The notes below the pieces were generated by a model that was not told the origin of the DNA, did not search any database, and saw only the letters and a program-made list of their open reading frames with translations. The translations under genes were made by a program, and so were the position numbers. Below, in pieces: positions 6,807 through 6,832 of a stretch of 13,936 nt of DNA. Origin of the DNA: a virus; the UHGV virus genome UHGV-0300571, one strand, 5' to 3'. Numbering within the stretch: the stretch's first letter is position 1; each line of letters starts with the position of its first letter.

Positions 6807-6832
6807 GAACAACCTGGAACAACCACGAACAA
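6807..6832 (-). promoter_or_regulatory. Three GAACAA (TTGTTC on minus) direct repeats phased at 10 bp, upstream of the capsid operon
   Basis: GAACAA at 6807-6812, 6817-6822 and 6827-6832 (plus strand), lying between the upstream terminator (6850-6877) and a TTTACA / AT-rich promoter-like stretch on the minus strand. The same motif and phasing recur at 12442-12467 and 13825-13842. Confidence 0.5.

Follow-up and report, generated by a model that had tools for sequence, protein, structure and literature searches.

The window analysed here, 13,936 nucleotides of virus genome UHGV-0300571, is a capsid-forming phage-inducible chromosomal island (cf-PICI) of Escherichia coli, inserted in yifB/comM. 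It carries the hexamer TTGTTC in arrays with an exact 10-bp period upstream of the capsid operon, between the integrase gene int and alpA, and on the attachment (att) arm next to int, and from the comparisons below the likeliest reader of this word would be AlpA, the island's own small winged-helix protein. All long open reading frames (ORFs) of the window lie on the minus strand. On its right the window extends as far as the att junction, and the left end of the island, with a Fic gene and the other att arm, lies beyond the window.

5467 to 6612, minus strand: major capsid gene, first of the packaging operon (capsid, protease, portal, connector, HNH, terS, terL, down to 619).
11964 to 12152, minus strand: alpA, 62 aa, a Phage_AlpA winged-helix protein by profile matches and the proposed reader of the repeats.
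12523 to 13752, minus strand: int, a tyrosine integrase with an N-terminal Arm-DNA-bind_3 domain, assigned by profile match and by the gene order of a relative.
13927 to 13936, no strand: start of the att core at the yifB junction; AATAGCGGAT recurs at the far end of the island.

Among annotated relatives E. coli TUM9757 comes closest, with 96.8% identity and a match to 92% of the window; its island, likewise inserted in yifB/comM, runs from int through an AlpA-type helix-turn-helix gene, small early genes, a RepA-type helicase, SSB, PerC and a small unknown ORF to the major capsid, prohead protease, portal, connector, HNH, terS and terL genes. This order is the cf-PICI architecture as described in bioRxiv 10.1101/2022.09.08.507074. 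The marks of a cf-PICI are int, alpA and a replication module ahead of HK97-type packaging genes, a lack of tail and lysis genes, a size of ~15 kb and a site unused by prophages; by its gene order and its insertion in yifB/comM, the island fits this description. At least 80% of the window is present in 47 E. coli genomes.

In array 1, GAACAA stands on the plus strand at 6807, 6817 and 6827, which is TTGTTC three times on the minus (gene) strand. Array 2 has TTGTTC on the plus strand at 12442, 12452 and 12462, and the same phase continues with TGGTGT (12472), TTGTTT (12482) and TTGTGT (12492). Array 3 has GAACAA at 13826 and 13836 with in-phase GTACAA (13816) and GCACAA (13806), four units in total, and a second block nearer the att core (13869-13913) adds five TGT-phased units. 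The exact 10-bp spacing of TTGTTC amounts to two triples and one pair, with each array running on into degenerate TTGT units. A sequence-only reading of the window had reported arrays at these three loci, and all three were found there. Its description of array 2 as opposite to arrays 1 and 3 is correct, and the inversion is kept in relatives; its three perfect copies in array 2 are present, and its two degenerate copies are in fact three. It overlooked the same repeats on the far att arm, as well as a second, distinct repeat family on the plus strand at 13775-13798 (ATTAACTACACC twice).

TTGTTC occurs 15 times in the window, counting both strands, and these copies form five pairs and two triples at exactly 10 bp. 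In 2000 dinucleotide-preserving shuffles of the window, a background that the earlier reading had suggested, the mean was 0.0045 pairs and no shuffle gave a TTGTTC triple. Any hexamer tripled at 10 bp was seen 0.006 times per shuffle on average versus two times in the window, and both of the observed triples are TTGTTC. The phasing of TTGTTC is far beyond chance. Iterons of the ori type lie at 8162-8353, just downstream of the RepA-type helicase gene (TCCCCACTTTT four times plus variants), and relatives with other rep alleles carry other iteron words, for example GGTGGAACA and AAGTGCGCG. As a source of the motif the iterons were rejected: those of the window are TCCCCACTTTT, and lone TTGTTC copies at 8171 and 8339 overlap them.

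The protein proposed to read the arrays matches the Pfam family Phage_AlpA (PF05930) with E = 2.7e-18 and 66 bits against a cut-off of 21, matches PDB entry 8C3T ('AlpA family') with E = 2.7e-6, and falls in PHROG 2790, 'excisionase and transcriptional regulator'. The Pfam match bears out the earlier statement that alpA encodes a winged-helix protein of the Xis type. AlpA is the sole winged-helix protein of the int/alpA module, and no other small protein of the Xis/RDF type is encoded in the island.

At the capsid operon, array 1 is embedded in a compact set of signals.

6762 to 6789, minus strand: predicted sigma-70 promoter of the capsid operon, -35 TTTACA (6789-6784), 16-nt spacer, -10 TATGTT (6767-6762), 9 of 12 matches.
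6807 to 6832, minus strand: capsid-operon operator, TTGTTC three times at 10 bp (TTGTTCGTGG TTGTTCCAGG TTGTTCGG), with unit centres near -54, -64 and -74 relative to the predicted promoter.
6834 to 6845, minus strand: conserved box TTTTGTAAATTA (also given as TTGTAAATTA), directly upstream of the operator and kept in every operator class.
6850 to 6880, minus strand: hairpin and T-run (GCCCGGATTTTTCCCGGGTCTTTTTTT), read from the sequence as the end of the upstream alpA-to-hyp82 transcription unit; a simple scan gave no call.

The triple thus sits between the conserved box and the TTTACA-16-TATGTT promoter, downstream of the hairpin and T-run. Because the hairpin and T-run would end the upstream unit, the capsid operon would need a promoter of its own. 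The promoter scan found one site where 0.3 were expected, and the promoter position is kept in relatives. With its units upstream of and in phase with the -35, the operator has the geometry of a class-I-type activator site. In all E. coli cf-PICI relatives that have a capsid gene the operator is identical or near-identical, which, together with invariant columns in the other arrays (below), answers the conservation check that the earlier reading had proposed.

Two further elements flank the operator. The box is kept in every cf-PICI examined, independent of operator class or regulator, and a common reader, perhaps a host factor, is possible. The 5' leader of the capsid transcript (~6745-6612, minus strand) is a conserved structured element for which Rfam holds no family. 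It has an invariant 5' hairpin (GUGGC-A-CUCA-GACG-UGAG-CC-GCCAC), a stem of nine pairs in which compensatory changes abound when 51 distinct leaders from many Enterobacterales are compared, and a second invariant hairpin that ends ~8 nt before the AUG. An invariant 8-nt complementarity, in which AGACGUGA of the first element is the perfect complement of UCACGUCU of the last, makes an alternative pairing possible. Antitermination, translational control and a DNA-level packaging site are candidates for the role of the leader.

The spacer between int and alpA holds array 2 and the predicted alpA promoter.

12442 to 12497, plus strand: array 2, six units at 10 bp (TTGTTC three times, TGGTGT, TTGTTT, TTGTGT), inverted relative to arrays 1 and 3, 26 bp past the int stop codon.
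12217 to 12245, minus strand: best sigma-70-like alpA promoter, TTGCCA, 17 nt, TG-CACAAT (-10 side TGCACAAT), conserved in the island EcCICFT073.
12185 to 12224, minus strand: second phased set, GACACAAT, GACGCAAC, ACCCAAT, ACCCAAT, at spacings of 10, 10 and 12.

Across 10 diverged spacers, the AACAA columns of array 2 are invariant. The units of the second phased set overlap the -10 and the early transcribed region of the predicted alpA promoter and resemble the degenerate units of array 2; they are possibly a second AlpA site, perhaps for autorepression. A conserved TACAYT box lies 64 bp from array 2, and a hairpin with compensatory changes stands between array 2 and the alpA promoter. This hairpin (12320-12341) shows GGCGTAAAA/TTTTACGC versus GGCATAAAA/TTTTATGCC, is called by the scan as a plus-strand terminator with a T-run, antisense to alpA, and could be the int terminator, an attenuator in the alpA leader or the end of an antisense RNA. 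On the other side, right after the units of array 2, the plus strand at 12498-12535 reads TTCTGA, 17 nt, TATATT, which is promoter-like and points into the int 3' end (antisense); its geometry recalls the sites of the excision factor TorI (below) that abut a -35, and the promoter scan gave no call there.

On the near att arm, the repeats stand beside a tandem pair of a different sequence.

13775 to 13798, minus strand: candidate integrase arm-type sites, GGTGTAGTTAAT twice at a 12-bp period, 23 bp upstream of the int ATG, assigned by co-variation with Int.
13805 to 13841, minus strand: att-arm block A, TTGTTC, TTGTTC, TTGTAC and TTGTGC at 10 bp, immediately upstream of the Int pair; these are proposed sites of AlpA as recombination directionality factor (RDF).
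13869 to 13913, minus strand: att-arm block B, TGTTTT, TGTTTC, TGTGCC, TGTTCA and TGTTTT, between block A and the att core.

On the near arm, GGTGTAGTTAAT twice is accompanied by phased units in blocks of four and five, and on the far arm the same pair is accompanied by three units, which is the layout of an RDF array. The far arm (L001 ~1590-1645) has GGAACAA twice beside ATTAACTACACC twice, in the order and orientation of window positions 13775-13841, and across relatives it reads CTTGTGTCTA-TTTGTTCCAC-GTTGTTTCAT, 14 nt, GGTGTAGTNNNT twice. The TTGT core of block A is invariant across insertion sites. In L068 the whole attP can be read as three TTGT units, the pair, ~95 bp, the core, ~125 bp, four TTGT units, the pair and int; L068 is an IMG/VR contig of 11098 bp, circularly permuted with the far arm at both ends, and apparently captures an excised or concatemeric form. 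The earlier reading had recognised in the arrays the anatomy of sites for an Xis-type winged-helix protein, and this description holds, as direct repeats in helical phase do adjoin Int arm sites. From this layout, array 3 more plausibly belongs to the att-arm intasome, with RDF sites beside Int arm sites, than serves as an activator site for int. L138 (E. coli O157:H7 FRIK2533) is a PICI located between phoQ and roxA with this int/alpA module; its int is broken near the 5' end by an IS3-family element, and both att arms and the alpA-upstream array are intact despite this interruption.

Capsid promoters were gathered through the invariant leader block from 27 species-level genomes and 36 further viral contigs. 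All of them have three to five repeats with a 10-bp period at the same position, and the repeats fall into at least three word classes, TGTTC, kTTACyC and ATAAC/TTACC. The loci L093 and L106 align in one 12-kb high-scoring segment pair at 96.4% identity, and differ only at the left end and in a ~75-bp cassette containing the capsid promoter and operator. At the left end, L093 has an 85-aa AlpA and L106 a 64-aa HTH_17 protein; in the operator, L093 has TGTTC three times and L106 has TAAC/TACC five times. Elements with an HTH_17 protein for which an arm is available (L173, L191) carry WTACY repeats on that arm, as in their capsid operator. Arm block and capsid operator are of the same word class in 8 of 10 distinct element types.

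We consider it probable, with appreciable room for doubt, that phased TTGTTC(G/C) is the operator word of the island's own AlpA, which would act as RDF on the arms, as autoactivator and as activator of the capsid operon. Both the binding of AlpA to the repeats and the activation of the capsid promoter by such binding are what we infer from sequence comparison. In the proposed mechanism, a helper phage would induce alpA, and AlpA would oligomerise cooperatively on phased repeats in three settings. Next to the Int arm-type pair of GGTGTAGTTAAT on each att arm, it would serve as RDF in excision; within the int-alpA spacer, it would drive its own early operon (autoactivation); and at about -54 to -74 of the capsid-operon promoter it would be a class-I-type activator of the packaging genes. 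A wider picture, possible although on balance doubtful, would see in AlpA a single 62-aa RDF-type master switch that uses one word for excision, early operon and capsid operon. Regulator and operator would then be exchangeable cassettes across Enterobacterales (TGTTC with AlpA, WTACY with HTH_17), and the capsid operon would also be gated by its leader.

Published work on related modules bears on the separate steps. EcCICFT073, located in the CFT073 genome, has an AlpA identical at 61 of 62 positions, six phased units in the int-alpA spacer and the layout of TTGT units plus pair on both arms. Unlike the window, it is without an HK97-type capsid operon and without the third promoter array, and the capsid-promoter operator is specific to cf-PICIs. 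Its AlpA is a helper-induced activator that autoactivates PalpA and leaves Pint unaffected, and overexpression of AlpA leads to int-dependent excision and replication (Fillol-Salom et al. 2018, PMC6092414); that study defines no operator sequence for AlpA. The sequence-only reading had also proposed that AlpA activates int, and this is contradicted by the published reporter on the near-identical EcCICFT073 module, in which AlpA was without effect on Pint (PMC6092414). The promoter scan found no sigma-70-like promoter in 13700-13936, and by analogy with the KplE1 prophage (below) the arm arrays could at most repress Pint or stay neutral there. The broader proposal, that one regulator couples int expression and excision to packaging, survives in part: the comparative data are best read as a coupling of excision to the capsid operon, and coupling to int expression falls away with the unaffected Pint. 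[quoted passage not shown] This role in excision supports the RDF reading of the arm arrays. Unlike the AlpA proposed for the window, PICMI AlpA leaves satellite transcription unchanged and acts as RDF only, and its sites are unmapped (PMC10803314).

The closest parallel in site anatomy is TorI of the KplE1 (CPS-53) prophage of E. coli K-12, which binds five ~8-bp sites of the form nnGTTCGn, three of them at a 10-bp period, and represses PintS (PMC2951348). We read the sites from MG1655 using the coordinates in that paper. Sites I3-I5 are CAGTTCGT-ca-TGGTTCGC-tt-CAGATCGT, at a 10-bp period and running into the -35 of PintS; I1 and I2 are CAGTTCGC and CAGTCCGC, and all five adjoin IntS arm sites. 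TorI, a small winged-helix RDF, is remotely related to AlpA (26% identity, pairwise E = 6e-5), and its DNA-binding residues Y28 and R45 align with Y and R of AlpA. The TorI/IntS system of KplE1 is therefore like the window in its GTTC[G] core, its 10-bp phasing and the position of its sites beside Int arm-type sites. It differs in that TorI sites are described on attL only, whereas the window repeats lie on both arms and at two promoters distant from att. The lambda Xis sites X1, X1.5 and X2 are likewise direct repeats in helical phase, bound cooperatively by a winged-helix protein in a filament-like manner beside Int arm sites; they are known from a single arm and are not known to act at a structural-gene promoter, in contrast to what is proposed for the window arrays. 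Two other small proteins, P4 Vis and P2 Cox, recognise repeated boxes in attP, for excision, as well as at promoters of the lysis/lysogeny or late programme, with motifs and regulated promoters that differ from those of the window. Vis is described as AlpA's homologue in P4, which requires it for excision, and the AlpAs of PICIs are only remotely related to it (PMC6092414).

Several observations weigh against AlpA as the single reader of TTGTTC. The literature searched contained no mapped AlpA operator in a PICI. TorI falls below the Pfam Phage_AlpA threshold and is not a member of the family, so the likeness of its sites is an analogy. In CP4-57 of E. coli K-12, the founding AlpA element, there are two (G)TTCGGA units, 21 bp apart, giving a similar layout and a weak match to the TTGTTC word; the ssrA-intA spacer of this element (L205) also holds a tandem pair of TAGGCCCA with an inverted copy next to intA, and these copies are likely IntA arm sites. 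In the window itself, ~200 bp separate the inverted array 2 from the best sigma-70-like alpA promoter (TTGCCA-17-TGCACAAT). An identical operator is found in E. coli cf-PICIs whose capsid is only 68-75%, AlpA 53-60% and Int 40-77% identical. Operator identity across AlpA alleles that are 53-60% identical argues against a simple allele-specific AlpA site and would require a specificity conserved across alleles; an R-[ST]-x-R-[YWF] helix pattern common to the AlpA alleles fits such conservation and is only suggestive. Elements with a D2 long AlpA (helix SRSSRWKMEQQG; L176, L201, L172, Klebsiella-type cf-PICIs) have repeats of the TGTT type on the arm and upstream of alpA, yet a TACCC-type capsid operator. 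Finally, L179, with an HTH_17 protein, and L193, with a D2 AlpA, have one common operator.

The last three of these points are also what favours a division of labour, in which AlpA reads the att-arm and int-alpA arrays and the capsid triple is read by another activator of the island, the helper phage or the host, the common word being coincidence or relic. The conserved TTGTAAATTA box and the structured leader, which flank the operator in all classes, point the same way, as they imply further layers of control that are independent of the regulator. In the D2 elements, the RDF and activator roles may indeed be split between two proteins. We nevertheless hold this division to be unlikely for the window, since L093 and L106 change only the regulator end and the operator cassette, since arm and capsid repeats switch jointly in HTH_17 elements, and since other candidate readers do not follow the operator. 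PerC is missing at most loci that have it. Within the swap set around L093 and L106, the homologue of hyp82 (phrog_1957, unknown function) does not follow the operator, and hyp82 was rejected as reader because L107 has the L093-type operator and the N-terminal sequence of L106. An unbiased search of upstream ORF families against operator class, based on crude automatic class calls, found none that separates the classes cleanly (best 10/16 versus 1-2/17). Among long AlpAs, ...MENEG goes with TGTTC operators and ...MEQQG with TACCC operators, a suggestive association that is confounded by relatedness.

A host protein as reader of the arrays, either an OmpR/PhoB-type response regulator or a nucleoid protein, appears improbable. 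Winged-helix response regulators bind direct repeats phased at 10-11 bp, the TorR box CTGTTCATAT shares TGTTC with the arrays, and within E. coli the motif is independent of the AlpA allele. L201, one of the D2 long-AlpA elements, has TGTTCATC six times upstream of alpA, a word that we take to be close to the TorR box. Against a host reader, the class of operator switches along with the regulator that the element encodes when the backbone is near-isogenic, both operator classes are hosted by the same genera, and the repeats form an integral part of the att arms in a mobile element known from several insertion sites.

That TTGTTC represents integrase arm-type sites is more improbable still, although each att arm does carry phased direct repeats within ~130 bp of the core and Int has an Arm-DNA-bind_3 domain. 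The arrays also occur at promoters 1.3 kb and 7 kb from the core, and it is the 12-bp tandem pair, not TGTT(C), that co-varies with the N-terminal domain of Int. The pair occurs as GGTGTAGTTAAT or as GGTGTAGTCACT, and GGTGTAGTCACT goes with changes in the N-terminal beta-strands of Int from SIRHSTSGLL to SVKYLTSGKL; the change from GTTAAT to GTCACT is seen on both arms, with the far arm reading GTCACT/GTCATT. Beside other integrases, the pair is GTGCAGTCAGT (L092, both arms), GTGTAGTCAA (L106, both arms), TGTGTATTGC (L073, L095), TGTATAAACA (L176) or GTATCCTA (L173, L191). In AlpA-type elements the repeats next to the pair remain of the TGTT(C) type throughout, despite the change of Int family, and TTGTTC is unchanged over integrases that are 40-77% identical. 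Since it is the pair that follows the N-terminal domain of Int, on both arms, and TGTT(C) stays, the role of Int arm-type site fits the 12-bp pair and not TTGTTC. The sequence-only reading had named integrase arm-type sites as the identity that would overturn its proposal, and this identity belongs instead to the pair that tracks Int.

PerC, encoded two genes upstream of the capsid operon, has a PerC-family match at 3e-35, belongs to PHROG 'transcriptional activator' families and is encoded just before the morphogenesis operon in both the window and EcCICFT073, but as reader of the capsid operator it is scarcely credible and was rejected, since a PerC-like ORF within 2.5 kb is lacking at 24 of the 31 loci that carry this operator, and L093 and L106 have none.

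Elsewhere in the island, the early region is the most mosaic part. At 10727-11911, the window has one 394-aa ORF where the relative instead has several small genes (Icd-like, hypotheticals) and a divergent YlcI/YnfO gene, and the match to the closest annotated relative is ~60% over half the length. For L154, the internal-consistency scan gave no informative chains.

The arrangement with AlpA as common reader would be of a known kind, in which RDFs double as transcription factors on phased repeats at att sites and promoters, as TorI does. P4 Vis and P2 Cox are further RDFs of this double kind. New here are a candidate operator word for a PICI AlpA, its placement on both arms, the predicted link to the capsid promoter and an apparent matched exchange of regulator and operator. 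In Gram-negative PICIs, AlpA is known as the switch that governs induction, and the literature searched defines neither its DNA word nor activation of the cf-PICI capsid operon. The candidate operator word comes with exact coordinates at four kinds of site, which makes it directly testable, and supplies a signature by which att arms, Int arm sites and late promoters can be annotated from sequence in thousands of satellites. If it is true that regulator and operator move as matched cassettes, this would explain how the coupling of excision to particle formation is kept in mosaic satellites after recombination.

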